Shown in pieces: positions 1 to 18,908 of a stretch of 19,305 nt of DNA. The position numbers and the translations under genes were made by a program. Under the pieces are notes generated by a model. It made no database searches. It had not been told where the DNA came from and saw only the letters and a program-made list of their open reading frames with translations. This DNA is from a virus. Lineage: Duplodnaviria; Heunggongvirae; Uroviricota; Caudoviricetes. The first letter of the stretch is position 1; each line of letters starts with the position of its first letter. The DNA is taken from the IMG/VR virus record IMGVR_UViG_3300029828_000038, positions 1-19,305 of that record; one strand, given 5' to 3'.

Positions 1-827
1 CCGGAAGTCTCTACCTGTTCTGTGGTCATCGCCTGGCATCTGATATCGAAATCATGATGCGTCAGCGCTTTAATGTGCTGAACCACATTATCTGGGCGAA
101 GCCGTCCGGACGCTGGAACGGATGCAACAAGGAAAGCCTGCGGGCGTATTTTCCGGCAACAGAACGCATTCTGTTTGCTGAACATTATCAGGGTCCATAC
201 CAGCCCAAAAATGACGGCTATGCGGCAAAGGGGCGCGAGCTAAAACAGCACGTCATGGCCCCGCTGATTTCTTACTTTCGTGATGCGCGTGAATCACTGG
301 GAATAACGTCAAAACAGATAGCGGAAGCCACCGGAAAGAAAAACATGGCTTCGCACTGGTTTGGTACCAGTCAGTGGCAGTTACCAAACGAGGGTGATTA
401 CAACAAATTGCAGGCGTTGTTTGCGCGTGTTGCGGCAGAAAAACATCAGCGCGGGGAACTGGAAAAGCCACACCACCAGCTGGTCAGCACATACAGTGAA
501 CTGAACCGGCAATATGCCAGCCTGCTGGAAGAGTACAAATCCCTGCGGCGTTATTTTTCCGTATCGGCAGCCGTTCCTTATACGGATGTCTGGACGCATA
601 AACCCGTGCAGTTTTATCCGGGCAAACATCCCTGTGAAAAACCGGCGGATATGCTCCGGCAAATAATCAATGCCAGCAGTCGCCCTGGTGATTTGGTTGC
701 TGATTTTTTTATGGGGTCTGGCTCAACAATAAAAGCGGCACTTTCACTGGGACGCCGTGCGATTGGCGTGGAACTGGAGGAAGAGAGATTTAATCAGACT
801 GTAAGTGAAATAAAAAATAATCGTTAA
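1..827 (+). CDS. DNA methyltransferase, N6-adenine/N4-cytosine (PF01555-like) family; 5' end lies outside the window
   Basis: Reading frame is open from window position 3 with no stop, through the track ORF 54..827. The protein carries HPCEKP (HPTQKP-like) followed by DLVADFFMGSGST (FxGxG AdoMet motif) and GRRAIGVELEE, the characteristic C-terminal half of this family. The DPPY-type motif would be upstream of the window. Confidence 0.75.
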   Translation, partial: GSLYLFCGHRLASDIEIMMRQRFNVLNHIIWAKPSGRWNGCNKESLRAYFPATERILFAEHYQGPYQPKNDGYAAKGRELKQHVMAPLISYFRDARESLGITSKQIAEATGKKNMASHWFGTSQWQLPNEGDYNKLQALFARVAAEKHQRGELEKPHHQLVSTYSELNRQYASLLEEYKSLRRYFSVSAAVPYTDVWTHKPVQFYPGKHPCEKPADMLRQIINASSRPGDLVADFFMGSGSTIKAALSLGRRAIGVELEEERFNQTVSEIKNNR

Positions 828-1426
828 ATACGGATAACATTATTTCTGAAATTAAGAAATAATAGAAATATATACATATGTTTACGAATATTAACGTGAA
901 TTTCCATTGAAAAGAGAACAGGCATCATTAGTATTAATTTGAGTTCCGAGGGTATACCCCGAAGAACCAGTGCCGACTTAGTTCAGCAATCAGAGCAGGT
1001 GGCTTGTAACATCAGGTCACCAGTTCGATTTCTCAGTCGGTACCGTATGCGGGTCGATTCCCGCTGTTCCAGAAGTAACGAGATAGGTAGTTTTGGGCGC
1101 TGGCACATTAAATATGTGGGATGTTTCACCCTCTCTCCTTACCGCATCCAGCCTGTAATGAAAGTTATTTGTTACGGTACCAGTGCCATCTTTTTACAAT
1201 AGCGGAATGGTGCATTATTGGTAGATATTTTGTATTTCATGGCAGGGTCGGTGATGCATCATTCCGGTGTTGTAAATAACACCGCCGGGGTGTTCCTCAG
1301 TGCGGGGGTGGTTCAAGAGTCGGTTTAGCGGGAAGCCACAGTATCCATACAGTATGGAGTACTTCGGGAGGCACCCGACGCCCTGGTTTTACTACAATAA
1401 AAATAACTTATCTTCTGCATTGACCA

Positions 1427-1452
1427 GCCGCCCCCACCGGGCGGTTTTTTTA
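1427..1452 (+). terminator. Intrinsic terminator-like hairpin plus T-tract
   Basis: Stem CCGCCC (1428-1433) / GGGCGG (1439-1444) with loop CCACC, followed by T7 (1445-1451). No coding sequence overlaps it. Confidence 0.55.
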
Positions 1453-1536
1453 TTCTGAATTCCCCAAAAAAAGAAAACACGGACACTGATAATGCCCGTG
1501 TGGCAATGCCATGTAAGTCAGCGATGAATATGGCGC

Positions 1537-1570
1537 AAAAAAAAAGCGCGGCTGTCGGATTAAAGCCGCG
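1537..1570 (-). terminator. Intrinsic terminator-like hairpin plus U-tract on the minus strand
   Basis: A9 at 1537-1545 on the + strand (U9 following the hairpin on the minus strand). Stem CGCGGCT (1547-1553) / AGCCGCG (1564-1570) with a 10-nt loop. Convergent with the + strand terminator at 1427..1452. Confidence 0.4.
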
Positions 1571-1829
1571 GGACAAAGTCCGTGAAGAAGAATAAGCATC
1601 GGTCTCCTCCAGGAGACGAGTTGATATTACTAAGCTTTAAAAATGGTTTAAATCCCCGTATTAACCTTAATTTCAGATAAGCTTTATTTCATTTCTTCGC
1701 GCCACGCCCGGCGCATATCAAAAAGCCACAGAGCCTTTCAGGGGTGAGCTTACGGGATGGTCAGTGTGACTTTCTCTGTGGGCTGGTCACCCCGGGGCGC
1801 AGGCTCACCCACTAAAAGGAAAAGTCACG

Positions 1830-2255
1830 ATGTTTGGTATTTTCAAAAAGAAAACCCGCAAGGCCATTACTGAAGTAAAGAAAATGGAGAACCGCGACGC
1901 AGTGGAGGCGACCGTCTGGGGTGCGTATTCCATCGCATTCGCCGACGACACCTGTGACGCGAAAGAAGTCGCGGTACTGGAGAAAACCATTGCAGCACTT
2001 CCTGCCTTTGCGCCGTTCTCCGGTGAGATTGCACAAATGAGTGCAAATATCCGCGCCCGTTATGAAGCGTCGCCGCGCTCTGCCAATGCTGAAGCCCTTC
2101 GTCAGCTGGCTGACGTGGCAGGTACTGATGACGCAGTTAATGTGCTGTGCCTGTGTCTGGATATCGCTGACCAGGATGGCATTGGTCCGGATGAAGAAGC
2201 ACAACTCAAGAAAATTGCTCAGGCACTGCAGTTGCCGCTGGAGCAGTACCTGTGA
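1830..2255 (+). CDS. TerB-like (tellurite-resistance TerB family) protein, phage cargo gene
   Basis: ATG at 1830 preceded by AAAGGAAAAG. The 141-aa product has the TerB-type acidic motif DIADQDGIGPDEEAQLKKIAQAL and predicted helical character. It sits between terminator-like hairpins, upstream of the lysis genes. Confidence 0.7.
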   Translation: MFGIFKKKTRKAITEVKKMENRDAVEATVWGAYSIAFADDTCDAKEVAVLEKTIAALPAFAPFSGEIAQMSANIRARYEASPRSANAEALRQLADVAGTDDAVNVLCLCLDIADQDGIGPDEEAQLKKIAQALQLPLEQYL

Positions 2256-2404
2256 AAAGTGCGCGCCTTGTGCTGGCTGCCATCCTGCTGTTTCTGGTAG
2301 TGGTGGTGGATTTCACCGGACGGCTGATGTCGGTGCTGGCAGATGGTGTGCTGGTGGCGATGGCGCTGGCCGTACTCCGGCCTTTACTGCGCAAATCTGA
2401 ATAA
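2252..2404 (+). CDS. Small hydrophobic two-helix membrane peptide (50 aa), translationally coupled to the TerB-like gene; not in the ORF track
   Basis: GTG at 2252-2254 overlaps the TerB stop TGA 2253-2255 (GTGA), with GGAG at 2240-2243 upstream. Hand translation: (M/V)KSARLVLAAILLFLVVVVDFTGRLMSVLADGVLVAMALAVLRPLLRKSE, stop TAA 2402-2404. Codons are CTG/GTG-rich. It falls below the apparent 60-aa cutoff of the track. Confidence 0.4.
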   Translation: MKSARLVLAAILLFLVVVVDFTGRLMSVLADGVLVAMALAVLRPLLRKSE

Positions 2405-2455
2405 CACCACACAAAAGGCATCTGCGGGTGCCTTTGACGGGGTGTTGTTTTTTAC

Positions 2456-2477
2456 GGGCCGCTGGTGGCCCTTTTTT
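2456..2477 (+). terminator. Intrinsic terminator-like hairpin plus T-tract upstream of the lysis genes
   Basis: Stem GGGCC (2456-2460) / GGCCC (2467-2471) with loop GCTGGT, then T6 (2472-2477). A second hairpin AGGCA/TGCCT lies at 2416-2433. Confidence 0.5.
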
Positions 2478-2495
2478 ATTTACAGGAGAAAAAGT

Positions 2496-2888
2496 ATGTC
2501 TGAACCCTTATCCGGTTCCGGCACGGCTGCGGCGCTCGGCGGGGCGACGGTATTCGGGCTGTTTACCGGAACGGATTTCGGGATTGTGTTTGGTGCGTTC
2601 GCCGGGGCGTTGTTTGTGGCAACGATGCCGCAGAAGATTTCAGCCTGGCGTGTGGCGGCACATTTTCTGGTGTCGTTCATTGTTGGTGTACTGGGGGCGC
2701 GTGTACTGTCAGCCTGGATTGCATCAAAAACAGGTTATGACGGTACATCTGCGGATGCACTGTGTGCGGTGCTGGTGGCGGTGGTGTCGGTGAAGATTCT
2801 GTCGTTCATCCACCAGCAGGATATCGCATCACTGGTGTCCGGCCTGTTCTCGCGCCTGCGGGGTGGAGGAGGCGGCAATGTTAAGTAA
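2496..2888 (+). CDS. Putative holin / lysis membrane protein (three predicted TM segments)
   Basis: ATG at 2496 preceded by ACAGGAGAAAAAG; this is the in-frame internal start of track ORF 2343..2888. The 130-aa product has three hydrophobic segments and a charged Gly-rich C-terminus, and lies immediately upstream of the endolysin. Confidence 0.55.
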   Translation: MSEPLSGSGTAAALGGATVFGLFTGTDFGIVFGAFAGALFVATMPQKISAWRVAAHFLVSFIVGVLGARVLSAWIASKTGYDGTSADALCAVLVAVVSVKILSFIHQQDIASLVSGLFSRLRGGGGGNVK

Positions 2889-3153
2889 CCTTCCCGGATT
2901 GCTGAATGTGGCGTTATGCACGGTTATCGTGCTGACGCTCTTTTTTTATCGTCGCCGTGATTCCAGACATAAACCGCTGATGTCATGGCTGGCCTGGCTA
3001 CTGATGCTGCTTTATGCCTTTGCACCACTCAGCTATCTGTGCGGTCGCCCGTTAGCGGCGAACTGGCTGGCGGTGGGGCTTAATCTGCTGTTCTGCGTGC
3101 TGGTGATACGTGCACGCGGGAACGTCACAAAAATCTTTCCAATGTTGAGGTGA
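2878..3153 (+). CDS. Second lysis-cassette membrane protein (holin/antiholin-like, about three TM segments)
   Basis: ATG at 2878 preceded by GGAGGAGG, overlapping the upstream gene by 11 nt. The 91-aa product is hydrophobic with basic loops (FFYRRRDSRHK). Its stop TGA 3151-3153 is 2 nt before the endolysin start. Confidence 0.5.
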   Translation: MLSNLPGLLNVALCTVIVLTLFFYRRRDSRHKPLMSWLAWLLMLLYAFAPLSYLCGRPLAANWLAVGLNLLFCVLVIRARGNVTKIFPMLR

Positions 3154-3155
3154 AT

Positions 3156-3533
3156 ATGTCGGGTAAATTCAGATTCAGCCGTCGCAGTGAAAAAAATCTG
3201 GAGGGCGTCAAACCACAGCTGGTTGCTGTCGTTCGCCGTGCGCTGGAGCTGACGGAGGTTGATTTCGGTATTACGGAAGGCCTGCGCAGTAAGTATCGCC
3301 AGAAACAGCTGGTTGCGGCAGGGAAAAGCCAGACCATGAACAGCCGCCACCTGACAGGTGATGCGGTGGATGTTGTGGCCTACATTGGCAGCCAGGTGTC
3401 ATGGGACTGGCCTCTGTACGAGAAAATAGCGCAGGCATTTAAGCAGGCTGCCGCAGAGCTGGGAACTACCATCGAATGGGGCGGTGAGTGGCGGTCCTTA
3501 AAGGACGGGCCTCACTTTCAGTTGAAACGCTGA
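3156..3533 (+). CDS. Endolysin, L-alanyl-D-glutamate peptidase (peptidase M15 / VanY-like, phage T5 Lys-like)
   Basis: ATG at 3156 with GAGGTG upstream. The 125-aa product has the T5-Lys-like pattern: KFRFS..SEKNL..VKPQL..RRALEL, the zinc-ligand motif SRHLTGDAVD, and C-terminal EWGGEW...DGPHFQL. Confidence 0.85.
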   Translation: MSGKFRFSRRSEKNLEGVKPQLVAVVRRALELTEVDFGITEGLRSKYRQKQLVAAGKSQTMNSRHLTGDAVDVVAYIGSQVSWDWPLYEKIAQAFKQAAAELGTTIEWGGEWRSLKDGPHFQLKR

Positions 3534-3547
3534 TAACCAGGTGTGTT

Positions 3548-3730
3548 ATGAGCAGAAAACACTGGACACACAGAATGCCGCGAACGGCGGCGAAATGGGC
3601 ACTGGTAGCGATACTGGTGCCTTTTTTATTGGTGGGATGCGTCAGCCTGGATAAGGCGCGCCAGCTTTTCGATACGGCTTCTCAGGTCTGCGAAATTGTT
3701 GACGGTGTTCGGCAGTGTCTGCAGAACTGA
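3548..3730 (+). CDS. Small outer-membrane lipoprotein, lysis-associated (spanin-like position)
   Basis: ATG at 3548 with AGGTG upstream. Signal peptide with basic n-region, hydrophobic core and lipobox LVGC. The mature part is 30 aa (CVSLDKARQLFDTASQVCEIVDGVRQCLQN), with Val at +2 and three Cys. It starts 14 nt after the endolysin stop. Confidence 0.6.
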   Translation: MSRKHWTHRMPRTAAKWALVAILVPFLLVGCVSLDKARQLFDTASQVCEIVDGVRQCLQN

Positions 3731-3901
3731 TCGCCCGTAAGAGCAGAATATTTTGCTGAAAAATGAAGGATGCGTCAGCGCCCGGAAAGCATGAAATTCT
3801 GTGTTTGCGGTCATTCAATAAAATAAATTCTTTCTTTCGCCGCGAATACTCAAATGTTGATCAGCGCCAGGTGCGGCGACGGGCTTCGATATCAGGAGAC
3901 G

Positions 3902-4180
3902 ATGATGGGAAAAACAGAAAACAAACCGATTTTAGTTGGTGTCGCGTCTATTCCGTTTAAGTTTGAACTGTCACAACTGGTGGAAGTATGCATCAGTGAT
4001 GAATGGGGTGAGGTTAAAGCTCGCGCTCAGTATGCAGATGGCGAAAACCAGTACTTGCTCCACTACAAAGCTGCTGATGGTCGTGCCACGACGGAGTGGT
4101 TTGGTGAATCAATGCTGGAAGCAACAGAAGATGCTCGTCATCCGGGCTGTCCGGTATTTGCCTTCATGAAATTACCGTAA
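3902..4180 (+). CDS. Hypothetical protein (92 aa, soluble), candidate cargo gene
   Basis: ATG at 3902 preceded by TCAGGAGACG. No TM segment or recognisable motif. It is preceded by a 170-bp AT-rich spacer and followed by the palindrome GTTACTGAGTAAC (4190-4202) and the hairpin GCAGCCC/GGGCTGC (4213-4235). Confidence 0.5.
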   Translation: MMGKTENKPILVGVASIPFKFELSQLVEVCISDEWGEVKARAQYADGENQYLLHYKAADGRATTEWFGESMLEATEDARHPGCPVFAFMKLP

Positions 4181-4262
4181 GGTGCGGTAGTTACTGAGTA
4201 ACAGGCATTACAGCAGCCCTTCAGTGAGGGGCTGCGATAATGCCGGTATTAAGGAGATTCCA

Positions 4263-4613
4263 ATGCCATCACGAATCCCCCGCGCATGCCGTAAGCGAGG
4301 TTGCGCAGGCACGACAACAGACAGCTCTGGCTACTGCGATAAACATCGGGGTGAAGGCTGGGTGCAGCACCAGCGCGGACTGAGCCGCCACCAGCGTGGC
4401 TATGGCTCAAAATGGACGGTGATTCGAGCCCGTATTCTGAAGCGCGATAAAGGTCTGTGTCAGTTGTGTCTGCGTGTCGGTGTGGTGCGCGAGGCGAAAA
4501 CTGTCGACCACATCATCCCGAAAGCACATGGCGGAACAGATGCAGACAGCAACCTGCAGAGTCTGTGCTGGCCCTGCCACAAAGCGAAAACAGCGCGCGA
4601 ACGAATCAGGTGA
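4263..4613 (+). CDS. HNH endonuclease (packaging-associated, HK97 gp74-like position)
   Basis: ATG at 4263 with AAGGAG upstream. The product has Cys-rich zinc-finger-like CRKRGCAG...CDKH and the HNH core DHIIPKAHGG...N...CWPCHKAKT. It lies directly upstream of the terminase small subunit. Confidence 0.85.
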   Translation: MPSRIPRACRKRGCAGTTTDSSGYCDKHRGEGWVQHQRGLSRHQRGYGSKWTVIRARILKRDKGLCQLCLRVGVVREAKTVDHIIPKAHGGTDADSNLQSLCWPCHKAKTARERIR

Positions 4614-4760
4614 TAATTATTCTCACTTGTGGGGAGGGGCGGGTAAAATCCCTGCAGCCCTGGCTGCTCAGTACCGCCGCCTGACCTTTCCTCGCATCGC
4701 CGCAGGTTCGAAAACTTTTTTTTGGGAATGCGATCAAACGATTGATAGGTAAAACCGATT
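4614..4760. other. Candidate cos / packaging-initiation region between HNH endonuclease and terminase small subunit
   Basis: A 147-bp non-coding gap with G-rich GGGGAGGGGCGGG, the hairpin GCAGC-CCTG-GCTGC, the GC block CCGCCGCCTGACC and a T9 run. The position matches the cos site of HK97-like phages. The exact cut site cannot be determined. Confidence 0.3.
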
Positions 4761-5243
4761 ATGTCAGGACCCCCGAAAACCCCGCCACGCCTGCATTTGA
4801 TACGAGGCAACCCATCAAAGCGCCCCGTTAAAGACCCCAAAAAAACCGCTAAAAAGGACGAAAAAGGTCTCCCTAAAATTCCGCAACATTTAGGGGCGCA
4901 GGGGAAGTACTGGTTCAGGCGAATGGCGGAAGAACTGAATGCGGAAGGGATCATTTCTCAGCTTGATGCGCGTGCACTCGAGTTGCTGGTGGAAGCCTAC
5001 ACCGAATACCGGCATCACTGCGAAATACTCGATGTTGAGGGTTATACCTACCGCACGGAAACGCAGAACGGTGATGTGCTGATTAAGGCACACCCGGCTG
5101 CTGCGATGAAAGCGGATGCCTGGAAGCGGATCCGGGCGATGCTTGCAGAGTTTGGTATGTCACCGGCAAGCCGGGCGAAAGTAAATACCGCCGGACCGGA
5201 TGATGTTGATCCGCTGGCGGAACTTTTAAAAGCGAGAGACTGA
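4761..5243 (+). CDS. Terminase small subunit, P27 family
   Basis: 160-aa product with a basic N-terminus (PKTPPRLHLIRGNPSKRP...) and the P27-family core YWFRRMAEEL...LDARALELLVEAY...HPAAAMKADAWKRIRAMLAEFGMSPASRAK. Its stop overlaps the large-subunit start (TGATG). Confidence 0.85.
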   Translation: MSGPPKTPPRLHLIRGNPSKRPVKDPKKTAKKDEKGLPKIPQHLGAQGKYWFRRMAEELNAEGIISQLDARALELLVEAYTEYRHHCEILDVEGYTYRTETQNGDVLIKAHPAAAMKADAWKRIRAMLAEFGMSPASRAKVNTAGPDDVDPLAELLKARD

Positions 5244-7000
5244 TGGCAAAAGTGGCTGACGGGATCCGCTACGCCGAACGTGTTGTTGCAGGAGAAATTG
5301 TCGCTGGCGAATTTGTCCGTCTGGCCTGCCAGCGTTTTCTTGATGATCTGAAGTACGGCGAAGAGCGGGGGATTTATTTCAGTGAACCCCGTGCGCAGCA
5401 CATCCTGAATTTCTACAAATTTGTGCCCCATGTAAAAGGGGCGCTGGCAGGCCAGCCCATTGAACTGATGGACTGGCATGTATTTATTCTCATTAATATT
5501 TTTGGTTTTGTCATTCCGCTGGTCAATGAAGAGACCAGGGAAGTTGTTATGCGCAGCGATGGCAGCGGACGTCCGGTGATGGTGCGCCGGTTCCGGACGG
5601 CGTACAACGAAGTCGCCCGTAAAAACGCAAAATCAACCCTGTCATCGGGTATCGGTCTGTATATGACGGGGGCAGATGGTGAAGGCGGGGCTGAGGTGTA
5701 TTCAGCCGCAACCACGCGTGACCAGGCCAGAATCGTGTTTGAAGACGCCAAAAATATGGTCAGAAAAGCCCGGTCGACACTCGGGCGATTGTTTGATTTC
5801 AACAAGCTGGCGATTTACCAGGAGCAGAGCGCATCAAAATTTGAACCGCTTTCTTCGGATGCAAACAACCTGGATGGTCTGAACATCCACTGCGCCATTA
5901 TTGATGAGCTGCATGCACATAAAACCCGCGACGTGTGGGACGTTCTGGAAACGGCAACTGGTGCCCGTCTGCAGTCCCTGTTATTTGGTATCACCACGGC
6001 TGGCTTTAACAAGGAAGGGATTTGTTACGAGCAACGCGATTACGCCATCAAGGTATTGCGTGGCTATAACAGTGACGTGGAGGGCGCGGTAAAAGACGAC
6101 TCTTACTTTGCGATCATTTACACGCTCGATGAGGGAGATGATCCGTTTGATGAAACGGTCTGGCAGAAAGCGAATCCCGGCCTGGGCATCTGTAAACGCT
6201 GGGATGATTTGCGTCGTCTGGCGAAAAAAGCGAAGGAGCAGGTTTCTGCGCGGGTGAATTTTTTCACGAAACACATGAATGTGTGGGTCACTGCCGAATC
6301 TGCCTGGATGGACATGATTAAGTGGGAGAAGTGCGAATACATTGCTCCACAGCATGAGCTGAAAACATATCCCATGTGGGTCGGTGTAGACCTTGCTCAT
6401 AAGATTGATATCTGTGCGGCGGCAAAACTCTGGCGAACCGATAACGGACATGTTCATGCTGATTTTAAATTCTGGCTCCCGGAAGGACGGCTGGAGCGGT
6501 GCTCGCGGCAGCAGGCAGAACTTTACCGGAAATGGGCGGAGATGGATAAGCTCATCCTGACGGATGGTGATGTTATCGATCATGCTCAGATAAAAAGTGA
6601 CTTACTGGAATGGATTGGTGGTGAAAACCTGAGGGAGCTGGGATTTGACCCGTGGAGTGCAATGCAGTTCAGTCTGGCTCTGGCTGAAGAAGGGATACCG
6701 CTGGTGGAAGTTCCGCAGACGGTCCGCAATCTGTCAGAGGCTATGAAGGAAACGGAATCACTGGTCTATGCCGGGCGTTTTCACCACAGCAATCACCCGG
6801 TCATGAACTGGATGATGTCTAACGTTACGGTAAAACCGGACAAAAACGACAATATCTTCCCGAACAAATCCACGCCTGAAGCCAAAATCGACGGTCCTGT
6901 TGCGATGTTTACAGCAATGAGCCGGATGCTGGTCAATGGCGGTGAACCGGAGCCGGATCTGTCTGAGCATCTGGTCAGCGTTGGTATTCGCTCGCTTTAA
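5243..7000 (+). CDS. Terminase large subunit (Terminase_1-like)
   Basis: 585 aa, size and position typical. ATPase-like N-terminal region and nuclease-like C-terminal region by pattern. Coupled to the small subunit. Confidence 0.9.
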
Positions 7001-7011
7001 CCGAGGGCATT

Positions 7012-7194
7012 ATGTTTCTGATAATTCTCACGCCACTGGTGGGCGTGCTGGGGGCGCTTTTGCTGGCGTATGGCGCCTGGCTGATTTATCCCCCGGCAGG
7101 TTTTGTTGTTGCCGGGGCGCTGTGTCTGTGCTGGTCGTGGCTGGTTGCGCGTTATCTCGATCGCGGTCACCGGGTCGCCTCTGGAGGTGAGTAA
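7012..7194 (+). CDS. Small two-helix membrane protein (60 aa) between terminase and portal
   Basis: ATG at 7012, 11 nt after the terL stop, with GAGGG upstream. Product [60 protein letters not shown] has two hydrophobic helices and a charged tail. Its stop TAA overlaps the portal ATG (TAATG). Confidence 0.5.
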
Positions 7195-8435
7195 TGTTTT
7201 TCCAGGGGCTTTTTCAACGCAAAAATAACACCCCCGTCACAACGCCCGGGATGCTTGCGGAAGAGCTGGGGTTGTCATACGACACCTATACCGGAAAGCG
7301 GATCAGCAGCCAGCGGGCCATGCGGCTGACGGCGGTCTATTCCTGCGTCAGGGTGCTGGCTGAGTCTGTTGGTATGCTGCCCTGCAGTCTCTACAAAATC
7401 AGCGGCACCCTTAAAACACGGGCGGTGGATGAACGGCTGCATAAGCTGATTTCGGCAAAACCCAATGGCTACATGACGCCGCAGGAATTCTGGGAACTGG
7501 TTATCGTCTGCCTGTGTCTGCGGGGTAATTTTTACGCCTACAAGGTAAAGGCACTGGGGGAAGTGGTGGAGCTTCTTCCGATAGATCCGGGCTGTGTGGA
7601 ACCGAAGCTGAACAGCCAGTGGCAGCCGGTTTATCAGGTGACGTTTCCGGATGGTTCCGTGGATGTGCTGACCCAGAATGAAATCTGGCATGTGCGTACC
7701 CTGACGCTGGATGGACTTGTCGGTCTGAATCCCATTGCATATGCGCGCGAGGCCATTTCACTGGCAGCGGCAACCGAGGAGCATGGTGCCAGATTGTTTG
7801 GCAATGGCGCGGTAACATCCGGTGTGTTGCGTACGGATCAACAACTTTCTGACCAGGCTTATGCGCGTATCAAAAAGGATTTTGAGGAACGGCATGTCGG
7901 GCTGGGAAACTCTCATCGTCCGATGATTCTGGAAATGGGGCTGGACTGGAAAACGGTGGCACTGAATGCCGAGGACAGCCAGTTCCTGGAAACCCGCAAG
8001 TTTCAGCTGGAAGAAATCTGTCGCCTGTTCCGCGTGCCGCTGCATATGGTGCAGAACACCGATCGCGCCACCTTCAACAATATTGAAGAGCTGGGGCTTG
8101 GTTTCATTAACTATTCCCTTGTGCCGTATCTGACCCGTATTGAGCAGCGGATCAATACAGGGCTGGTCAGGGAGAGCAAGCAGGGAAAATTTTACGCCAA
8201 GTTTAATGCCGGAGCATTGTTGCGTGGCGACATGAAATCCCGCTTTGAAGCGTATGCCACGGGGATCAACTGGGGGATTTATTCCCCTAATGACTGCCGT
8301 GATCTGGAAGATATGAATCCCCGACCGGGCGGTGATGTGTATCTGACACCGATGAACATGACCACCAGTCCCTCTGCTGGCGATGACAACGGTAAGAAAA
8401 AGGAGAGTGGAGATGCAGACAAAACAGCGTCTTGA
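7194..8435 (+). CDS. Portal protein, HK97 family
   Basis: 413 aa, immediately downstream of terminase and upstream of the prohead protease. Sequence pattern typical of Phage_portal family. Confidence 0.9.
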   Translation: MFFQGLFQRKNNTPVTTPGMLAEELGLSYDTYTGKRISSQRAMRLTAVYSCVRVLAESVGMLPCSLYKISGTLKTRAVDERLHKLISAKPNGYMTPQEFWELVIVCLCLRGNFYAYKVKALGEVVELLPIDPGCVEPKLNSQWQPVYQVTFPDGSVDVLTQNEIWHVRTLTLDGLVGLNPIAYAREAISLAAATEEHGARLFGNGAVTSGVLRTDQQLSDQAYARIKKDFEERHVGLGNSHRPMILEMGLDWKTVALNAEDSQFLETRKFQLEEICRLFRVPLHMVQNTDRATFNNIEELGLGFINYSLVPYLTRIEQRINTGLVRESKQGKFYAKFNAGALLRGDMKSRFEAYATGINWGIYSPNDCRDLEDMNPRPGGDVYLTPMNMTTSPSAGDDNGKKKESGDADKTAS

Positions 8436-9063
8436 TATACCGCTGAACCTGAAATCCGTCAGTGATTCCGGGGAATTTGAAGGTTACGGTTCTGTTTTTG
8501 GTGTTAAGGACAGCCACGATGATGTGGTGGTCCCCGGAGCCTTTACCACAACACTCCAGAAATGGAGCGAAAAAAAGGCGCTGCCTGCGTTGCTCTGGCA
8601 GCACCGCATGGATGAGCCCATCGGTGTGTACACCGAAATGAAAGAAGATGATGTCGGGCTTTATGTCAGGGGACGATTACTCATTGATGATGATCCCCTG
8701 GCAAAACGTGCACATGCCCATATGAAGGCCGGTTCTTTAACCGGCCTTTCTATTGGCTACATCCTGAAAGACTGGGAGTACGACCGGGAAAAAGGGGTAT
8801 TCCTGCTGAAAGAGATCGACCTGTGGGAGGTCAGTCTGGTGACGTTTCCTTCCAATGATGAAGCACGCATCAGCGATGTGAAAAATGCGCTGGCGCGTGG
8901 GGAGATCCCTGATCAGAAAATTATTGAGCGGGTCCTGCGCGATGTTGGACTCTCGCGAACCCAGGCCAAAGCATTCATGGCCGGGGGATATGGCGCTTTA
9001 TCCCTGCGTGATGCTGAGGATGTGGATGCCGCACTGAATGCACTGAAAAATCTTAAATTTTAA
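8413..9063 (+). CDS. Prohead protease, HK97 family (peptidase S78/U35)
   Basis: ATG at 8413 with AAGGAGAGTGGAG upstream. Chosen over the track start 8383, which has no RBS. Conserved region GYGSVFGVKDSHDDVVVPGAF and position between portal and capsid. Confidence 0.85.
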   Translation: MQTKQRLDIPLNLKSVSDSGEFEGYGSVFGVKDSHDDVVVPGAFTTTLQKWSEKKALPALLWQHRMDEPIGVYTEMKEDDVGLYVRGRLLIDDDPLAKRAHAHMKAGSLTGLSIGYILKDWEYDREKGVFLLKEIDLWEVSLVTFPSNDEARISDVKNALARGEIPDQKIIERVLRDVGLSRTQAKAFMAGGYGALSLRDAEDVDAALNALKNLKF

Positions 9064-9076
9064 TCAGGAGTAAATA

Positions 9077-10303
9077 ATGGCTGTTGATATTAAAGACGTT
9101 GAACAGGTCGCGCAGGATTTGCAGCAGAAGTTTGACGATTTTAAGGCAAAAAACGACAAGCGCATTGACGCGATCGAACAGGAAAAAGGCAAGCTGGCCG
9201 AACAGGTGGAAAGCCTGAACGGGCAAATCAGCGAGCTGGAGAACCTGAAAAGCGACCTGGAAAAAGAGCTGGCAGACATCAAGCGTCCGGCAGGCGGCAC
9301 GCAAAATAAAGTTGCCGGTGAACACAAAGAAGCGTTTATCGGATTTATGCGCAAGGGGCGTGAAGACGGTCTGCGTGAACTTGAACGTAAGGCGCTTCAG
9401 GTAGGTAATGATGAAGATGGTGGTTATGCCATTCCGGAAGAACTGGATCGTACCATCCTGACGCTACTGAAAGATGAGGTGGTGATGCGCCAGGAAGCCA
9501 CTGTGATCACCCTCGGTGGCTCGGATTATAAAAAACTGGTGAATCTGGGCGGCACAACGTCCGGATGGGTGGGGGAAACGGATGCTCGTCCGGAAACCGC
9601 CACCTCAAAACTGGGTCTGATTGAACCCTTTATGGGGGAAATCTACGGCAACCCGCAGGCCACCCAGAAAATGCTCGATGATGCTTTCTTCAATGTGGAA
9701 GACTGGATCAACAGTGAGCTGGCGCTGGAATTTGCCGAGCAGGAAGAAATTGCCTTTACCAGTGGCGACGGCAGCAAAAAACCAAAAGGTTTTCTGGCTT
9801 ACGAGTCCACCGATGAAGATGACAAGACCCGTGCGTTTGGCAAACTTCAGCACATTGCTTCCGGTGCGGCTTCCGGCGTGACTGCCGATGCGATCATTAA
9901 ACTGATTTACACCCTGCGCAAGGCGCACCGCAGCGGCGCGAAGTTTATGATGAACAACAGCAGCCTGTTTGCCATTCGTCTGCTGAAGGATAACGACGGA
10001 AATTATCTGTGGCGTCCGGGTATTGAGCTGGGTCAGCCTTCTTCTCTGGCAGGGTATGGCATCGTTGAGAATGAACAGATGCCGGATATTGCTGCCGATG
10101 CAAAAGCCATTGCGTTTGGTAACTTCAAACGTGGCTATACCATCGTTGATCGCATCGGTACCCGTATCCTGCGCGATCCGTACACCAATAAACCGTTTGT
10201 GGGTTTTTACACCACCAAGCGAACCGGCGGTATGCTGGTGGATTCTCAGGCGATTAAGCTGATGAAAATTGGGGCCGCAACCCGCCAGAAAGCCGCTGCG
10301 TAA
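9077..10303 (+). CDS. Major capsid protein, HK97 family, with N-terminal coiled-coil delta (scaffold) domain
   Basis: ATG at 9077 with AGGAG upstream. 408 aa. The N-terminal ~100 aa is a coiled-coil (KFDDFKAKNDKRIDAIEQEKGKLAEQVESLNGQISELENLKSDLEKELADIK), followed by a capsid-fold region. Confidence 0.9.
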   Translation: MAVDIKDVEQVAQDLQQKFDDFKAKNDKRIDAIEQEKGKLAEQVESLNGQISELENLKSDLEKELADIKRPAGGTQNKVAGEHKEAFIGFMRKGREDGLRELERKALQVGNDEDGGYAIPEELDRTILTLLKDEVVMRQEATVITLGGSDYKKLVNLGGTTSGWVGETDARPETATSKLGLIEPFMGEIYGNPQATQKMLDDAFFNVEDWINSELALEFAEQEEIAFTSGDGSKKPKGFLAYESTDEDDKTRAFGKLQHIASGAASGVTADAIIKLIYTLRKAHRSGAKFMMNNSSLFAIRLLKDNDGNYLWRPGIELGQPSSLAGYGIVENEQMPDIAADAKAIAFGNFKRGYTIVDRIGTRILRDPYTNKPFVGFYTTKRTGGMLVDSQAIKLMKIGAATRQKAAA

Positions 10304-10336
10304 TGCGGTTTTTTATGCCCGCACAGTGTTGCGGGC
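10293..10336 (+). terminator. Structured intercistronic element after the major capsid gene (weak terminator-like hairpin plus a second strong hairpin)
   Basis: CCGC (10293-10296) / GCGG (10305-10308) followed by T6 (10309-10314), then the perfect hairpin GCCCGCA (10317-10323) / TGCGGGC (10330-10336) directly before the RBS of the next gene. Confidence 0.3.
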
Positions 10337-10347
10337 AGGAGTTTCTG

Positions 10348-10665
10348 ATGGCAGCAATAGTGGAAAAACTCAGGGCGCAGTGCCGTATTGATACAGATGA
10401 TGCAACTGATGATGAGTTACTGATGCTGTATTTCCGGGCTGCCTGCCGCAAGGCAGAAAATTTTATCAACCGTAAGCTTTATGAGGAGACGGTGCCGGAA
10501 GGTGATCCTGACGGGGTGCTTATAGCTGATGATGTTTTGCTGGCGCTCATGTTGCTGGTCGGACACTGGTACGAAAACCGGGAAAATTCCTCAGATGTCA
10601 GCAAGGCACCAGTTCCGTTTGGTTTTTCTTCTCTGCTGGAGCCTTATCGTTTTATTCCTTTGTAG
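10348..10665 (+). CDS. Head-tail adaptor / connector protein (gp6-like, Phage_connect_1)
   Basis: ATG at 10348 with GGGCAGGAG upstream. Chosen over the track start 10303, which would read through the hairpins. Motif MAAIVEKLRAQCRIDTDDATDDELL typical of this family. Confidence 0.8.
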   Translation: MAAIVEKLRAQCRIDTDDATDDELLMLYFRAACRKAENFINRKLYEETVPEGDPDGVLIADDVLLALMLLVGHWYENRENSSDVSKAPVPFGFSSLLEPYRFIPL

Positions 10666-10673
10666 GAGGAACC

Positions 10674-11012
10674 ATGCAGGCGGGCAGATTACGTGATCGC
10701 GTAACTATTCTGAATGTCACCACCGTCCGTTCTCCGTCAGGGCATCCGGTGGAGACAATGACGGAGGGGGCAACCGTATGGGCAGAAGTTAAGGGGATCA
10801 GCGGGAGGGAGAGAATATCAGGAGGTGCAGAAACCGCTCAGGCTACGGTCAGAGTCTGGATGCGATTTCGGCGCGATGTGACAGCGACTTCACGTCTGAA
10901 AGTGCTGACCGGTGCATTTAAAGGGGTCACTCTTGGTATAGAAGGGCCACCAATACCGGATGCACGCGCCACCCGGCTTGAAATGCTCTGCAGTCTGAAG
11001 GGGAATGTGTGA
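10674..11012 (+). CDS. Head closure protein (Phage_H_T_join, SPP1 gp16-like)
   Basis: ATG at 10674 with GGAGGA upstream. 112 aa with pattern RDRVTI...VWAEVKGISGRE. Position after the adaptor. Confidence 0.8.
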   Translation: MQAGRLRDRVTILNVTTVRSPSGHPVETMTEGATVWAEVKGISGRERISGGAETAQATVRVWMRFRRDVTATSRLKVLTGAFKGVTLGIEGPPIPDARATRLEMLCSLKGNV

Positions 11013-11458
11013 TGGATTTCAGTCTTGATTTTTCAGGTCTGGCGGATATTGCACGGGATCTGGAGACGCTCAGCAGGGCAGAAAACAATAAGGTTCTGCG
11101 CGATGCCACCCGTGCCGGTGCTGAAGTTATGCGGGATGCAGTTGTTGAACGTGCGCCGGAGCGAACCGGGAAACTGAAGAAAAATGTGGTTGTTCTCACG
11201 CAGCGTTCAAAGCGTCGGGGGGAAATTATCTCGGGTGTCCACATTCGCGGACGGAACCTGCGAACCGGAAACAGTGATAACAGCATGAAAGCCAGCGATC
11301 CCCGAAATGCGTTTTACTGGCGCTTTGTGGAGCTGGGAACGATAAACATGCCCGCGCATCCGTTCATTCGCCCGGCTTTCGATACGACAGAGGAACTGGC
11401 AGCACAGATTGCCATACAGCGAATGAATCAGGCTATTGATGAGGTCTTAAGTAAATGA
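11012..11458 (+). CDS. HK97 gp10-family protein (neck / tail-completion)
   Basis: ATG at 11012 overlapping the upstream stop (TGATG); the track begins 3 nt earlier at GTG 11009. Motif VVERAPERTGKLKKN and ...HPFIRPAF typical of the family. Confidence 0.8.
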   Translation: MDFSLDFSGLADIARDLETLSRAENNKVLRDATRAGAEVMRDAVVERAPERTGKLKKNVVVLTQRSKRRGEIISGVHIRGRNLRTGNSDNSMKASDPRNAFYWRFVELGTINMPAHPFIRPAFDTTEELAAQIAIQRMNQAIDEVLSK

Positions 11459-11799
11459 GGGAAGCCACACTGTATTCCCTGCTGTCTCAACTGGCCGGAG
11501 GACAGGTTTATCCTTATGTGGTCCCGCTGACGGAGGGAAAGCCTGCGGTATCTCCGCCGTGGCTGGTGTTTTCTGTGGTGTCTGACACGGCGTCTGATGT
11601 GCTTGATGGTCAGGCTGAATCCAGAATTACCGTGCAGATCGATGTCTGGGCAACAGTACCTGATGACGCAGATGATATCCGTGAGCAGGCGCTTGATGCG
11701 GTAAGGCAACTTGCACCCTCCGTTATTTCTAAAACTCAGGGTTATGATCCTGATTCCCGTCTGAGCAGAGCCACGCTTGAATTTCAGGTAATAGCCTGA
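11455..11799 (+). CDS. Tail terminator-like protein (DUF3168-like, lambda gpU position)
   Basis: ATG at 11455 overlapping the upstream stop (ATGA). 114 aa. Position directly upstream of the major tail protein. Confidence 0.7.
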   Translation: MREATLYSLLSQLAGGQVYPYVVPLTEGKPAVSPPWLVFSVVSDTASDVLDGQAESRITVQIDVWATVPDDADDIREQALDAVRQLAPSVISKTQGYDPDSRLSRATLEFQVIA

Positions 11800-11820
11800 G
11801 GTCGTTAATGATTTTACCCA

Positions 11821-11846
11821 CCCGCCGCTGGCGGGTTTTTTATTTT
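11821..11846 (+). terminator. Terminator-like hairpin plus T-tract between tail terminator and major tail genes
   Basis: Stem CCCGCC / GGCGGG with loop GCT (11821-11835), followed by TTTTTTATTTT. Immediately upstream of the RBS CAGGAGACG of the major tail gene. Confidence 0.45.
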
Positions 11847-11858
11847 CAGGAGACGAGT

Positions 11859-12563
11859 ATGTCCTCTAATTTTGAGCGTTCGCAACTGACGAAAATTATG
11901 ATTTCGTCTGCACCGGTAACAGCAGAAACCCTGGATTCTGCCAGCTATCTTGGCCTGAGCTGTACAATCAAAGAGGTGCAGTTTACCGCAGGACAAAAGC
12001 AGGATATTGATGTCACCACGCTGTGTTCTGTTGAGCAGGAAAATATTAACGGCCTTGGTGCCGCGTCAGAGATTTCCATGTCAGGCAACTTTTACCTCAA
12101 TGCTGCCCAGAACGCGTTGCGCAGTGCCTATGACAATGACACCACGTATGGCTTTAAAGTTATTTTTCCGTCAGGCAACGGATTTACCTTTATGGCAGAG
12201 GTGCGTCAGCATACCTGGTCTGCAGGAACTAATGGTGTTGTGGCTGCAACGTTTTCCCTGCGCCTGAAAGGTAAACCTGTGCTGACGACAGAGCCGCTGA
12301 AAGTGAAGGTCGATTTAAACAGCACGCTGCAGGTTTCTGCCGGAGCGAAACTCGAAATGGTGGTTGAGGCTGCCGGTGGTGTGCCGCCTTATTCTTATGT
12401 CTGGAAGAAAGGTAGTTCTCCTGTTTCCGGACAGACGGCGGCAACATTCAGTAAGGCATCAGCAGCATCAGGTGATGCCGGTGCGTATACCTGCGAGATT
12501 TCTGATTCAGCAAGCCCTGTTAACAAGGTGACCTCCACTTCCTGCACTGTTACCGTCAGTTAA
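11859..12563 (+). CDS. Major tail (tube) protein with C-terminal Ig-like (Big_2-type) domain
   Basis: ATG at 11859 with AGGAGACGAG upstream; the track start 11808 would read through the hairpin. The C-terminal ~90 aa has the Ig-like signature (...PPYSYVWKKG...AGAYTCEISDSAS...TVTVS). Confidence 0.85.
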   Translation: MSSNFERSQLTKIMISSAPVTAETLDSASYLGLSCTIKEVQFTAGQKQDIDVTTLCSVEQENINGLGAASEISMSGNFYLNAAQNALRSAYDNDTTYGFKVIFPSGNGFTFMAEVRQHTWSAGTNGVVAATFSLRLKGKPVLTTEPLKVKVDLNSTLQVSAGAKLEMVVEAAGGVPPYSYVWKKGSSPVSGQTAATFSKASAASGDAGAYTCEISDSASPVNKVTSTSCTVTVS

Positions 12564-12577
12564 TGAGGATAGATGTG

Positions 12578-12949
12578 ATGACTAAAAATATCCGCAATCT
12601 GGCACTGGCAACGATGTCGGGGTTTCGCCATAAAACTGTTGATGTGCCTGAATGGGAAGGGGCAACGGTTGTATTACGGGAACCTTCTGCAGAAGCCTGG
12701 TTGCGCTGGCAGGAGATCGTTAAAGCAAAAGATGATGAGACACCGTTATCCGTTGCGGAGCGCGCCCGCCGAAATCTGGAGGCAGATGTTGAACTGTTCA
12801 TTGATGTTCTGTGTGATACCGGACTGCAACCTGTATTTTCAGAGGATGATCGTGAACAGGTGATTGCCGTGTATGGCCCGGTGCATGCGCGGCTTCTTCG
12901 GCAGTCTCTGGAACTGATCAGTGATGCCGGCGAGGTTAAAAAAAAGTAG
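12578..12949 (+). CDS. Tail assembly chaperone (lambda gpG equivalent)
   Basis: ATG at 12578 with GAGGATAGATGTG upstream; the alternative start is ATG 12563, coupled as TAATG. The ORF ends ...GEVKKK then TAG 12947-12949, immediately after the slippery heptamer. Confidence 0.75.
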   Translation: MTKNIRNLALATMSGFRHKTVDVPEWEGATVVLREPSAEAWLRWQEIVKAKDDETPLSVAERARRNLEADVELFIDVLCDTGLQPVFSEDDREQVIAVYGPVHARLLRQSLELISDAGEVKKK

Positions 12950-13251
12950 AGCTTCCGGGGATGCGTTTTCTGATGATGCTGGCGCTCAGGATGGGGCGCA
13001 CATTGTCAGAGTTACGCCGGGAAATGTCCGCATCAGAAATCATGATGTGGGCAGAATTTGACAGGTACAGCCCGCTGGGTGACGAGCGGGCTGATATCCG
13101 GGCTGCCCAGATAGTTTCTGCGGTTTACGGTGCGCAGGGTGTCAAAGTCCCACTGAATGATGCGCTTCTTCAGTGGGAACAAGAGCAGACAGAAGGCGTC
13201 TCAGATCCATTTGCCGGACTGGAAAACGCGCTTTTAATAGTGTCTCAGTGA
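12578..13251 (+). CDS. Tail assembly chaperone frameshift fusion product (lambda gpGT equivalent), made by a -1 shift at 12940-12946
   Basis: Frame relationship verified by hand: G is in frame 2 and the downstream ORF (track 12961..13251) is in frame 1. The fusion would read ...GEVKKK-VELPGMRFLMML... to the stop at 13249-13251. Position between major tail and tape measure matches the conserved G/GT arrangement. Confidence 0.6.
12940..12946 (+). other. Slippery heptamer A AAA AAG for -1 programmed ribosomal frameshift (G to GT)
   Basis: In the G frame the codons are AAA (12941) AAG (12944) TAG (12947). The -1 frame has a stop at 12937-12939 and is open from 12940 (AAA AAA GTA GAG CTT CCG GGG ATG...) into the downstream ORF ending 13251. 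Confidence 0.65.
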
Positions 13252-13260
13252 GTCAACATA

Positions 13261-13280
13261 ACCGCTTCGGCGGTTTTTTT
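13261..13280 (+). terminator. Terminator-like hairpin (UUCG tetraloop) plus T-tract upstream of the tape measure gene
   Basis: ACCGC-TTCG-GCGGT (13261-13274) followed by T7, then the RBS GGAGA and ATG 13291. Confidence 0.45.
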
Positions 13281-13290
13281 CGTCCGGAGA

Positions 13291-16200
13291 ATGAGTGTGG
13301 CGACATTACGTGAACTGATTATTAAAATCTCGGCAAATTCCCGGTCATTCCAGTCAGAGATCTCCCGGGCTTCGCGTATGGGGCAGGATTACTACCGTAC
13401 CATGCAGAACGGAGGCCGGCAGTCCGCTGCTGCATCCCGTGAAATGCGGCGTGCACTGGCAGAAGTGACGGATCAGATAAATACAGCTAAATCTTCGGCA
13501 CTGAATATGGCGGGGGCATTTGCCGGAGCTTTTGCTACCGGTCATCTTATTTCTCTCGCCGATGAGTGGAATTCAGTAAATGCCCGTCTGAAGCAGGCTT
13601 CACAGTCCAGTGATGATTTTCAGGTATCACAACGTGAATTAATGGCAATCAGCCAGAGAACGGGAACGGCGTTTTCTGATAACGCCAGCCTTTTTGCCCG
13701 CTCTGCAGCTTCCATGCGGGAGTATGGCTACAGTTCTGAGGAGGTACTGAAAGTCACCGAGGCGATCTCCACGGGCCTGAAATTATCCGGTGCCAGTACA
13801 GCAGAAGCCAGTTCGGTGATCACGCAGTTCAGTCAGGCACTGGCGCAGGGAGTGCTGCGCGGTGAAGAATTTAACTCTGTGAATGAGAACGGCGATCGTG
13901 TTATTCGTGCGCTGGCTGCGGGAATGGGTGTTGCCCGTAAGGATCTGAAGGCCATGGCGGATAACGGAAAACTGACCGCCGATAAGGTTGTTCCTGCACT
14001 GATTAGTCAGCTTGGGGCGTTGCGTGATGAATATGCAGCAATGCCTGATACTGTTTCATCCTCTGCAACCAAAGTTGAAAACGCCTTTATGGCCTGGGTT
14101 GGTGGTGCGAACGAGGCAAGCGGAGTGACAAAGACACTCACCGGGGTGTTGAATGGTGTTGCAGACAATATTGATACCGTGGCTGCTGCAGCTGGCGCAC
14201 TGGTTGCCGTCGGGGTAGCCCGATATTTTGGCAATATGGCGTCGTCTGCTGGATCTGCAACTGCCGGATTAATTACTGCAGCCAGAAACGAAGTGGCTCT
14301 TGCTGAAGCGCAACTTCGGGGGACACAGATAGCAACCGCCAGGGCGCGTGCGGCGGTTTATCGTGCGCAACAGGCGGTTGTTGCTGCTCGCGGTACCGAA
14401 AGGCAGGCCGCAGCAGAAGCGAAGCTGACAGCTGCCCAGGCGTCACTTACCCGTAATATTGCGGCCAGAACAGCGGCACAGACAACGCTGAATACTGTCA
14501 CGTCAGTGGGGAGTCGTCTGTTAAGTGGTGCGCTGGGGTTGGTTGGTGGTGTGCCGGGACTCGTCATGCTGGGGGCGACGGCCTGGTACACGATGTATCA
14601 GAATCAGGAGCAGGCCAGAGAATCTGCACGCCAGTATGCCGCAACAATCGACGAAATTCGCCAGAAAACGTCGGCAATGTCGCTTCCTGAAGCGTCAGAT
14701 AATGAGGAAAAGACGCGGCAGGCACTTGATGAGCAAAACAGGTTAATTGACGAGCAGAAAAGTAAGATTAAATCCTTACAGGAAAAAATTGCTGGCTATC
14801 AGTATGTGCTGGCAAACCCGGGCTGGACAACCGATAACGGTTTTATGATTAACCACATGACGTCGGTAAAAACTGTCACAGAAGGGCTTGCAGAAGCAAC
14901 AAATCAACTGGCAGTTGAACAGTCCCGTCTCACACAAATGCAGGGCAAAGCGCAATCCATTCAGGATGTGCTTGCCGGGCTGGAGGAGCGACGGGTGGCG
15001 TTGATCCGTCAACAGGCCGCGGAACAAAACAAAGCGTATCAGTCCCTGTTGATCATGAATGGGCAGCATACCGAGTTTAATCGCCTTCTCGGGCTCGGTA
15101 ATGAATTACTTCAGCAGCGACAGGGGCTGGTGAATGTACCGTTACGGCTACCACAGGCAACCCTGGATGATAAACAGCAGACCGCACTGAATAACAGCGA
15201 GCGCGAACTGGCTCTGTCCCGCCTGAAGGGGGAAGCCCGTGAGCGTGCCCGCCTGGGTTATGCTGCGGATGATCTCGGCTTTGTGGGAGAGGCGTATCAG
15301 ACAGCCAGACAGAATTATATCAATAACTCACTGGATGCCTGGCGAAATAACCAGGCAAATAAACCCAAAGCGCATAAAAAGACCGAAGCGGAAAAAACAG
15401 AAGATATTTATAAACGGCTGATTAAACAGCAAAAAGAACAAATAGCACTGGCAGGGCAGAATACTGAACTGGCTAAGATGAAATATCAGGTCAGTCAGGG
15501 CGAATTATCAACCCTGTCAGAAGCGCAGAAAAAAACGCTTTTGCAGAATGCAGCACTCATCGACCAGAAAAAGATTCGTGAGCAGCTTGCTGCGTATGAG
15601 AGCAGTCTGGCGGACAGTAATGCCAGTGCCCGGGCATCTGACGACGCGCAGTTGCTGGGATATGGTGAAGGCTCACGGATGCGTGAACGACTCCAGGAAA
15701 TGTGGAGTATCCGGCAGACGTTTGAGCAGAAAAATAACGAACTGCTGAGACAGTATCAGGCCGGAGAAATTGAAGAAGCCCTGTGGAAACAGGAGAAAGA
15801 ACTGAATAAAAAATATCTGGAAGAGCGTCTCAGCGATCAGCAGGATTATTATGCAAAGGCCGATGCTTTACGTAATAACTGGAATGCCGGACTCCAGGAA
15901 GGACTGACCAACTGGGCAGACAGTGCCACCGATTATGCTTCACAGGCGGCAGATGCTGTCGTTTCCACGATGGACGGGCTGGTATCAAATATTTCCGATG
16001 CACTGGCCGGGAATGTTGTGGAGTGGAGGAACTGGGGGAGTTCAGTTCTCCGGGAAGTTTCAAAAATTCTGATGAATGCAGCCATTGTTAACGGACTGAA
16101 ATCACTCTCCGGTGCCGGAGGGTGGCTTGGTACGGTCGGCGGATGGATTTCGGGGGCGGTGGCAAACGCAAAAGGTGGTGTTTACACATCGGCAAATCTG

Positions 16201-17556: not shown

Positions 17557-17560
17557 TCCC

Positions 17561-18849: not shown

Positions 18850-18869
18850 TGAAAAACGTTTTATGTGAA

Positions 18870-18888
18870 ACCGCCCCCGGGCGGTTTT
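18870..18888 (+). terminator. Weak terminator-like hairpin between I and J
   Basis: ACCGCC-CCCG-GGCGGT (18870-18885) followed by only TTTT, so a weak terminator at best. Confidence 0.3.
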
Positions 18889-18908
18889 GTCGTTATGGAG
18901 CGTGAGAA

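Follow-up and report, generated by a model that had tools for sequence, protein, structure and literature searches.

The 50-codon frame tciB, which overlaps the end of a TerB-family gene in an E. coli prophage region, probably encodes a small inner-membrane peptide of the DUF3927 family, which would be the obligate second product of a tciA-tciB gene pair and the membrane partner of TciA. We analysed the frame within a 19,305-nt stretch of a tailed-phage record (IMG/VR IMGVR_UViG_3300029828_000038, positions 1 to 19,305; hereafter, the window). The window is a phiP27/HK97-like late region in which an N6/N4 methylase gene, decayed tRNA genes, tciAB, two holin genes, an M15 endolysin gene and an HNH gene follow one another, with genes for the small and large terminase subunits, portal, protease, capsid and tape measure beyond them. 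The features discussed here are listed in Table 1.

Table 1 Features of the tciAB cassette and its surroundings, in window coordinates
Feature	Coordinates	Strand	Remarks
Conserved non-coding leader, ~130 nt	1697..1829	+	Directly 5' of tciA
tciA, TerB-family protein, 141 aa	1830..2255	+	Homologue of P1 TciA
Shine-Dalgarno-like GGAG	2240..2243	+	Within the tciA coding sequence, 8 nt before the tciB GTG
tciB, DUF3927/TciB-like small hydrophobic peptide, 50 aa	2252..2404	+	GTG start in GTGA; TAA stop
Compound hairpin ending in a U-rich tract	2399..2455	+	Outer stem 2399-2408/2441-2450; inner stem 2414-2422/2427-2435
Intrinsic-terminator-like hairpin, GGGCC-N6-GGCCC then TTTTTTATTT	2456..2481 (hairpin 2456-2471)	+	Separates the cargo slot from the lysis cassette
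Lysis cassette	2496..3533	+	Holin PF16931, 2496-2888; second holin PF05449, 2863-3153; M15 endolysin, 3150-3533

tciB is a conserved DUF3927 gene

The window peptide (MKSARLVLAAILLFLVVVVDFTGRLMSVLADGVLVAMALAVLRPLLRKSE) matches Pfam PF13064 (DUF3927) with 52.6 bits (E = 4.7e-14) over residues 4-48, against a curated cut-off of 25 bits, and DUF3927 was the only Pfam family to match it at E <= 0.1. It also matches PHROG 1470 (phrog_1470; E = 1.2e-23), which carries the label 'TciB-like inhibition of cell division or resistance to colicin'. RefSeq copies named 'DUF3927 family protein' in E. coli prophages are 94-98% identical to the window peptide (98% for WP_000833648.1), and phage records name the product 'TciB-like protein'. 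All 173 database clusters carried PF13064. When 1.84 billion representative proteins were searched exhaustively with a profile, DUF3927 emerged as a small family of 89 clusters, the representatives of which are nearly all stand-alone proteins of 45-65 aa. The cluster alignment gives a signature of R5, D20, F21, S27, D31, G32 and P44, in which D20 is invariant and D31 almost invariant. All seven residues are present in the window peptide, which differs from the consensus at position 43 (R rather than W). By these profile and signature matches, TciB is a member of the family that comprises P1 TciB, DUF3927 and PHROG 1470. P1 TciB is likewise assigned to DUF3927 by HMM, is ~50-55 aa long, has the signature residues and is encoded immediately after, and overlapping, a TerB-like tciA, although the two peptides are only 46% identical.

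The first-pass annotation had described tciB as an unlisted ORF. It was indeed absent from the ORF list that accompanied that annotation, but RefSeq carries it as a 'DUF3927 family protein', and the implication that the gene was uncatalogued does not hold: TciB already belongs to DUF3927 and PHROG 1470, and tciA-tciB is annotated in P1 GenBank records. Pfam, PHROGs, RefSeq and the annotation of P1 thus already record the gene, its family and the TerB-like gene with which it is paired; in P1, tciA, tciB and tciC are annotated 'by homology' only. In other records the gene is overlooked. Klebsiella phage 1 LV-2017 has tciB without an annotation (L004:3049-3204), and a metagenome contig has a copy that was missed by gene calling (L099:~686-850), so the family is under-annotated in some records.

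The reality of the frame had been left open by the first-pass annotation, which described 50 codons opened by a GTG over the upstream stop codon, with a GGAG 5' of it. All of these elements are present, with the GGAG at the 8-nt distance given in Table 1. The GTG (2252-2254) shares bases with the tciA stop TGA (2253-2255), giving a 4-nt overlap, and the frame closes at 2402-2404. None of this is remarkable by chance: composition-matched shuffles put the probability of an open run of at least 50 codons in a given frame at ~11%, the motif GGAG-N8-GTGA is expected 0.65 times per window, and two further long ORFs in other frames overlap the same DNA. The case for tciB as a gene therefore rests on homology and selection, both of which are strong. 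Among 70 intact copies (35 distinct nucleotide sequences), drawn from 80 IMG/VR loci, the window and related loci, dN/dS calculated by the Nei-Gojobori method was 0.33 in the called frame and 0.95 and 1.12 in the two shifted frames. Variable columns numbered 21, 16 and 33 at the first, second and third codon positions, an enrichment at the third. Purifying selection acts on the called tciB frame only.

Loss of the frame beside an intact TerB-like gene, which had been put forward as grounds for rejecting tciB, was seen in just 2 of 80 close relatives (L073 and L085, with a premature stop or frameshift), too rarely to refute the gene. On the combined comparative evidence, tciB is a genuine gene and not a chance ORF. 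That the frame is instead an untranslated by-product of G+C-rich DNA is highly improbable. The expected frequency of runs of this length, the openness of other frames and the GTG start would all be compatible with such an origin, but it is effectively refuted by the strength of the Pfam and PHROG matches, by selection confined to the called frame and by conservation of the peptide, down to 36% identity, across unrelated phage types and always at the same position relative to TerB.

tciB is strictly paired with a TerB-like gene

By sequence and fold match, the partner gene, tciA, encodes a true TerB. TciA matches PF05099 (TerB) with 26.6 bits and PHROG 632 with E = 4e-63, a profile search aligns it over its full length with the TerB structure 2JXU, and its gene is 78% identical in nucleotide sequence to P1 tciA. 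Matches to PNPase, returned by a single-sequence search of the PDB, were spurious. tciA is under far stronger constraint than tciB (dN/dS of 0.067 against 0.33). When the window is compared with Fostie and Klebsiella phage 1 (L003 and L004), nucleotide identity is ~78% (77-79%) in tciA against ~58% (57-60%) in tciB. Among close relatives, synonymous divergence is lower in tciB (pS 0.13) than in tciA (pS 0.32), a possible sign of mosaic recombination within the cassette.

The tight coupling to a TerB-like gene that the first-pass annotation had read from this one locus recurs throughout the relatives. All 80 close IMG/VR loci pair the two genes, with tciA directly upstream of tciB and a GTGA overlap. 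Divergent reference loci were located by exact-protein look-up. Each of the seven divergent DUF3927 members checked (36-46% identity) has a PF05099 TerB gene immediately upstream, with overlaps of 1, 4 or 8 nt, and a DUF3927 gene lies downstream of each of the three divergent TciA-type genes checked; one further contig has it uncalled. At all 12 tciA/tciB junctions compared, stop and start overlap or abut by 0-8 nt. The GGAG before tciB is not conserved in diverged relatives, being GGAT in Fostie and missing in P1, where tciB starts with ATG and overlaps tciA by 1 nt. The conserved coupling feature is thus the stop/start overlap and not the Shine-Dalgarno sequence. No local mRNA structure was found over the tciB start that might hide it, which leaves the overlap as the sole basis for coupling. 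With the overlap kept, the Shine-Dalgarno sequence not kept and the start unstructured, termination-reinitiation is the most economical reading: ribosomes finishing tciA would re-initiate at the overlapping tciB start, so that both proteins would be made together.

A single P1-like metagenome contig (L096:3001-3591) has a 1-nt insertion at the junction that joins the two frames into a 196-aa TciA-TciB protein (P0259), which could be either a sequencing error or a viable natural fusion. The exhaustive profile search yielded no true TerB-DUF3927 domain fusions; its long hits were chimeric or frameshifted gene calls, and P0138 (with a histidine phosphatase stub), P0165 (with an ABC stub) and P0132 were rejected as such.

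In twelve viral loci (L034-L044 and L053; for example, L034:3777-4150), a deletion has removed the leader and ~73 codons from the start of tciA but left the 50-codon tciB intact; here, a tRNA cluster abuts tciA codon 74. We rejected a separate 'half-TerB' architecture, as the 12 loci are deletion derivatives with a TTG-started remnant only. The remnant appears in RefSeq as a 'hypothetical protein', and such truncated copies are apparently the basis of PHROG 9865.

The non-coding leader 5' of tciA is conserved to the same degree as the coding sequence of tciA, with ~81% identity to its counterparts in Fostie and Klebsiella phage 1, and contains long invariant runs. Its start in these two phages adjoins the terminator located behind gene Q. 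The leader accompanies the pair in lambdoid phages and is absent from P1 and SSU5-like elements. It matched no Rfam family and showed no two-sided covariation or compensatory pairs, and its MFE z-score was just -1.9. An ATG-initiated ORF at 1757..1873 was discarded because it is not conserved: Fostie and Klebsiella phage 1 have ACG or ATA in place of the ATG.

Farther upstream, at ~900-1080, the window has a decayed tRNA cluster (compare L001:2153-2463), in which neither ARAGORN nor Rfam recovered a tRNA gene. The close relative L001 has tRNA-Ile, Arg, Thr and Gly in its cluster. The window is without Ile and most of Arg, its Thr-like copy has a 1-nt deletion in the anticodon loop, and its Gly copy has an internal deletion of ~48 nt. 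tciAB is repeatedly found beside phage tRNA genes in unrelated elements, namely P1, D6-like plasmid prophages and phiP27-like prophages. In P1 (L002 1616-3276), tRNA-Asn and Thr lie upstream of the pair and tRNA-Ile downstream; the phiP27-like case is window 900-2404.

tciAB occupies the slot that holds stx2e in phiP27

The view of tciAB as a compact accessory cassette at a cargo site is borne out by phiP27, which has stx2eA/B in the corresponding slot. The two share an identical backbone of methyltransferase gene, tRNAs, cargo, two terminator hairpins, holin, holin, M15 endolysin, HNH and terminase genes. The phiP27 cargo is functionally unrelated, and only a frameshifted 3' remnant of tciB is found there (L094 ~4440-4640 versus window 2310-2481). 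The remnant comprises the last ~95 nt of the gene (codons ~20-50) at ~90% identity, with a 1-nt deletion that shifts the frame, and it is kept together with both terminator hairpins, downstream of stx2e. Retention of the 3' end of tciB and of both hairpins indicates that the slot once contained a tciAB pair, of which tciA and the 5' part of tciB were replaced by the Stx2e cassette. An unrelated minus-strand ORF, annotated as 'L27' in phiP27, overlaps the start of the remnant.

Two hairpins and a T-tract had been proposed to precede the ribosome-binding site of the first holin gene. Both hairpins exist, but only the second scores as a canonical intrinsic terminator. The first, a compound hairpin with a 9-bp inner stem, is conserved in phiP27 downstream of stx2e; the second is identical in phiP27; and the fold z-score of the region is -3.7. 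The GGAG of the holin gene lies at 2485-2488 and its ATG at 2496 (not 2497). The cassette therefore has terminators behind it, but they belong to the backbone, being common to phiP27, and a consensus scan of 1450-1830 found no sigma-70-like promoter before tciA. Beyond the lysis genes, between the endolysin/Rz region and the HNH gene, an ORF of 108 aa at 3854-4180 has no Pfam match.

tciAB is found in unrelated phages and operons

Carriers of tciAB include lambdoid, P1-like, N4-like and T7-like phages, in early as well as late operons. The pair follows Q in Fostie and Klebsiella phage 1 and follows cro in some phages. P1 has it downstream of the ban operator, which C1 controls; a virulent, N4-like phage of Salmonella carries it too; and further copies lie in one early-left region near int and beside a T7-type RNA polymerase gene. 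P1 has tciA-tciB-tciC in its ban-operon region, whereas the window pair occupies a lambdoid late-operon cargo slot and is followed by terminators, without tciC. In P1, tciA, tciB and tciC are non-essential (PMC10695390), and the tci operon has been lost from about half of one P1-like subgroup (PMC9603915). The tci genes have been explicitly described as functionally untested (PMC6799933).

This distribution bears on the lysis-timing role that the first-pass annotation had considered. A holin-holin-endolysin cassette adjoins tciB in the window, Fostie, Klebsiella phage 1 and pPE4, and a small membrane peptide in such a position could be an antiholin-like or holin-accessory factor that modulates the timing of lysis. 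We consider this very unlikely. The placement is not conserved: tciAB also occurs after cro, in early-left positions, in the ban region of P1 and in virulent phages of the N4-like and T7-like kinds, and most other lineages carry it well away from all lysis genes. With the pair placed in so many unrelated settings, the lysis-gene neighbourhood is incidental. Moreover, two terminator hairpins stand between tciB and the lysis genes, and these are backbone features kept in phiP27 with its stx2e cargo. The constant partner of tciB is TerB rather than a holin, and TciB matched no holin family in Pfam or PHROGs. The pPE4 record itself (PP818812.1, 'Actinobacillus phage vB_Apl-pPE4'; L095) matches this E. 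coli prophage region at 96.6% identity over a stretch of 901 nt that includes the lysis genes, and its assignment to Actinobacillus pleuropneumoniae as host looks doubtful.

Two further neighbourhoods are of note. On one phage contig (L098:4491-5595), tciAB directly follows an Acb2/Tad1-like gene, which has an anti-CBASS/Thoeris sponge fold, and a chromosomal copy (L090:1-5904) is flanked by SbcCD-like genes on one side and an AIPR abortive-infection gene on the other. These neighbourhoods suggest a defence or counter-defence setting.

That virulent phages carry tciAB, and that it occurs in early operons under repressor control, suggests a role in lytic growth rather than in classic lysogenic conversion. 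This distribution weighs against the possibility that the pair is a lysogenic-conversion determinant conferring tellurite or pore-forming-colicin resistance on the host, with TciB as an accessory. The names in P1, RefSeq and PHROGs imply such a function, TciA is homologous to TerB, resistance to tellurite and to colicins and inhibition of phages are all conferred by ter operons, and the cassette occupies a moron slot with terminators behind it. Nevertheless, this reading is unlikely. terB would here be the sole representative of a multigene operon: no terC, terD or terZ/A/E gene was found beside tciA within the window, where the neighbours are the methylase gene, tRNA remnants and lysis genes. 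The minimal tellurite-resistance unit is reported to be TerC-TerD (PMC12054061), which also argues against it, as do the presence of tciAB in virulent N4-like and T7-like phages and repressed early operons, the lack of a detected sigma-70 promoter before tciA and the 'by homology' status of the annotation. The 'tellurite/colicin resistance' label is thus one inherited by homology, and the distribution in virulent phages and repressor-controlled early operons argues against it.

TciB as a proposed membrane partner of TciA

The two hydrophobic segments claimed by the first-pass annotation are recovered as hydropathy maxima at residues ~10-15 and ~36-38, with a polar turn, D20-F-T-G-R24, between them; the first segment is only ~14 residues long. 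Family-wide, the net charge of DUF3927 proteins is +1.5 at the N terminus, -0.4 at the turn and +1.5 at the C terminus. Hydropathy and this positive-inside charge pattern would fit an N-in/C-in two-helix hairpin in the inner membrane. An AF2 model of TciB alone showed one long helix rather than a hairpin (pLDDT 92). In the model of the natural fusion P0259, the TciB part was of low confidence (pLDDT 50-70) and supported no interface; the alignment for this model used TciA rows only, MAFFT having misplaced the short TciB rows.

We favour TciB as a membrane partner or anchor for TciA because its charge and hydropathy are hairpin-like, because TerC and TerB are reported to form a complex and because TerB is linked to transmembrane segments in Bunzi and Dionysus. 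In ter operons, terB precedes terC, which encodes the integral-membrane partner of TerB. A complex of TerC with TerB has been described as the functional core, or central unit, of the ter system (PMC12054061). As in terZABCDE, tciAB encodes a cytoplasmic protein of TerB fold directly before a membrane protein, here a probable one. However, the 50-aa TciB has no detectable similarity to the multi-pass TerC, and TerZ, TerA, TerD and TerE are missing from the window, so the likeness to TerB-TerC is an analogy of arrangement, not homology. In the Bunzi, Shango and Dionysus systems, too, a TerB domain occurs with transmembrane segments or partners. The TerB proteins of Bunzi and Dionysus carry or accompany such segments, and 'membrane surveillance' has been suggested as their function. 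tciAB differs from these systems in consisting of two genes without an ATPase, helicase or pore-forming partner, and in being phage-borne, including in virulent phages, whereas Bunzi, Shango and Dionysus are found in host defence islands. Searches of TciA and TciB with PADLOC models, from a library older than Dionysus, gave no hits at E <= 1.

The same features could also describe a small membrane toxin or depolarizing effector that TciA checks or directs, in the manner of a toxin-antitoxin or abortive-infection system. TciB is a very hydrophobic peptide of 50 aa with conserved acidic residues within its hydrophobic segments, its gene is tightly linked to tciA, the Dionysus defence system combines TerB proteins with pore-forming effectors, and one chromosomal copy lies near an AIPR abortive-infection gene. 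We nonetheless regard a toxin as quite unlikely. No PADLOC defence model and no Pfam family except DUF3927 matched, and carriage by virulent phages fits abortive infection poorly. In addition, the 12 loci that have lost the leader and ~73 codons of tciA keep tciB intact, which would be unexpected if TciA were an antidote, unless tciB is silent there.

As a membrane partner of TciA, TciB would form a short hairpin in the inner membrane, its basic N and C termini both facing the cytoplasm, in which TciA resides, and its two conserved aspartates placed one at the turn and one inside the second hydrophobic segment. It would thereby act as a docking or partner subunit for the soluble, TerB-fold TciA. 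In the window, the cassette would lie in the late transcript, between an upstream terminator and the two downstream hairpins, and its expression would coincide with that of the late genes in lytic growth. The benefit would more likely go to the phage during infection, through the handling of membrane stress, exclusion of other phages or counter-defence, than to the host through tellurite resistance. A more specific and speculative version, to which we give a low weight, is that TciA-TciB is a minimal phage-borne TerB/membrane module of lytic growth, in which TciB sets a TerB sensor or decoy at the inner membrane that may blunt the TerB-based 'membrane surveillance' of the host or exclude superinfecting phages.

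Because the gene, its family and its pairing are already catalogued, tciB matters little as a discovery. The TerB domain recurs in ter operons and in several anti-phage systems, and a strictly conserved unit of a TerB protein and a 50-aa putative membrane peptide offers about the most compact experimental handle on its function. If the reading of TciA as a TerB sensor or decoy is true, tciAB would be the simplest tractable system for learning what the TerB domain does.
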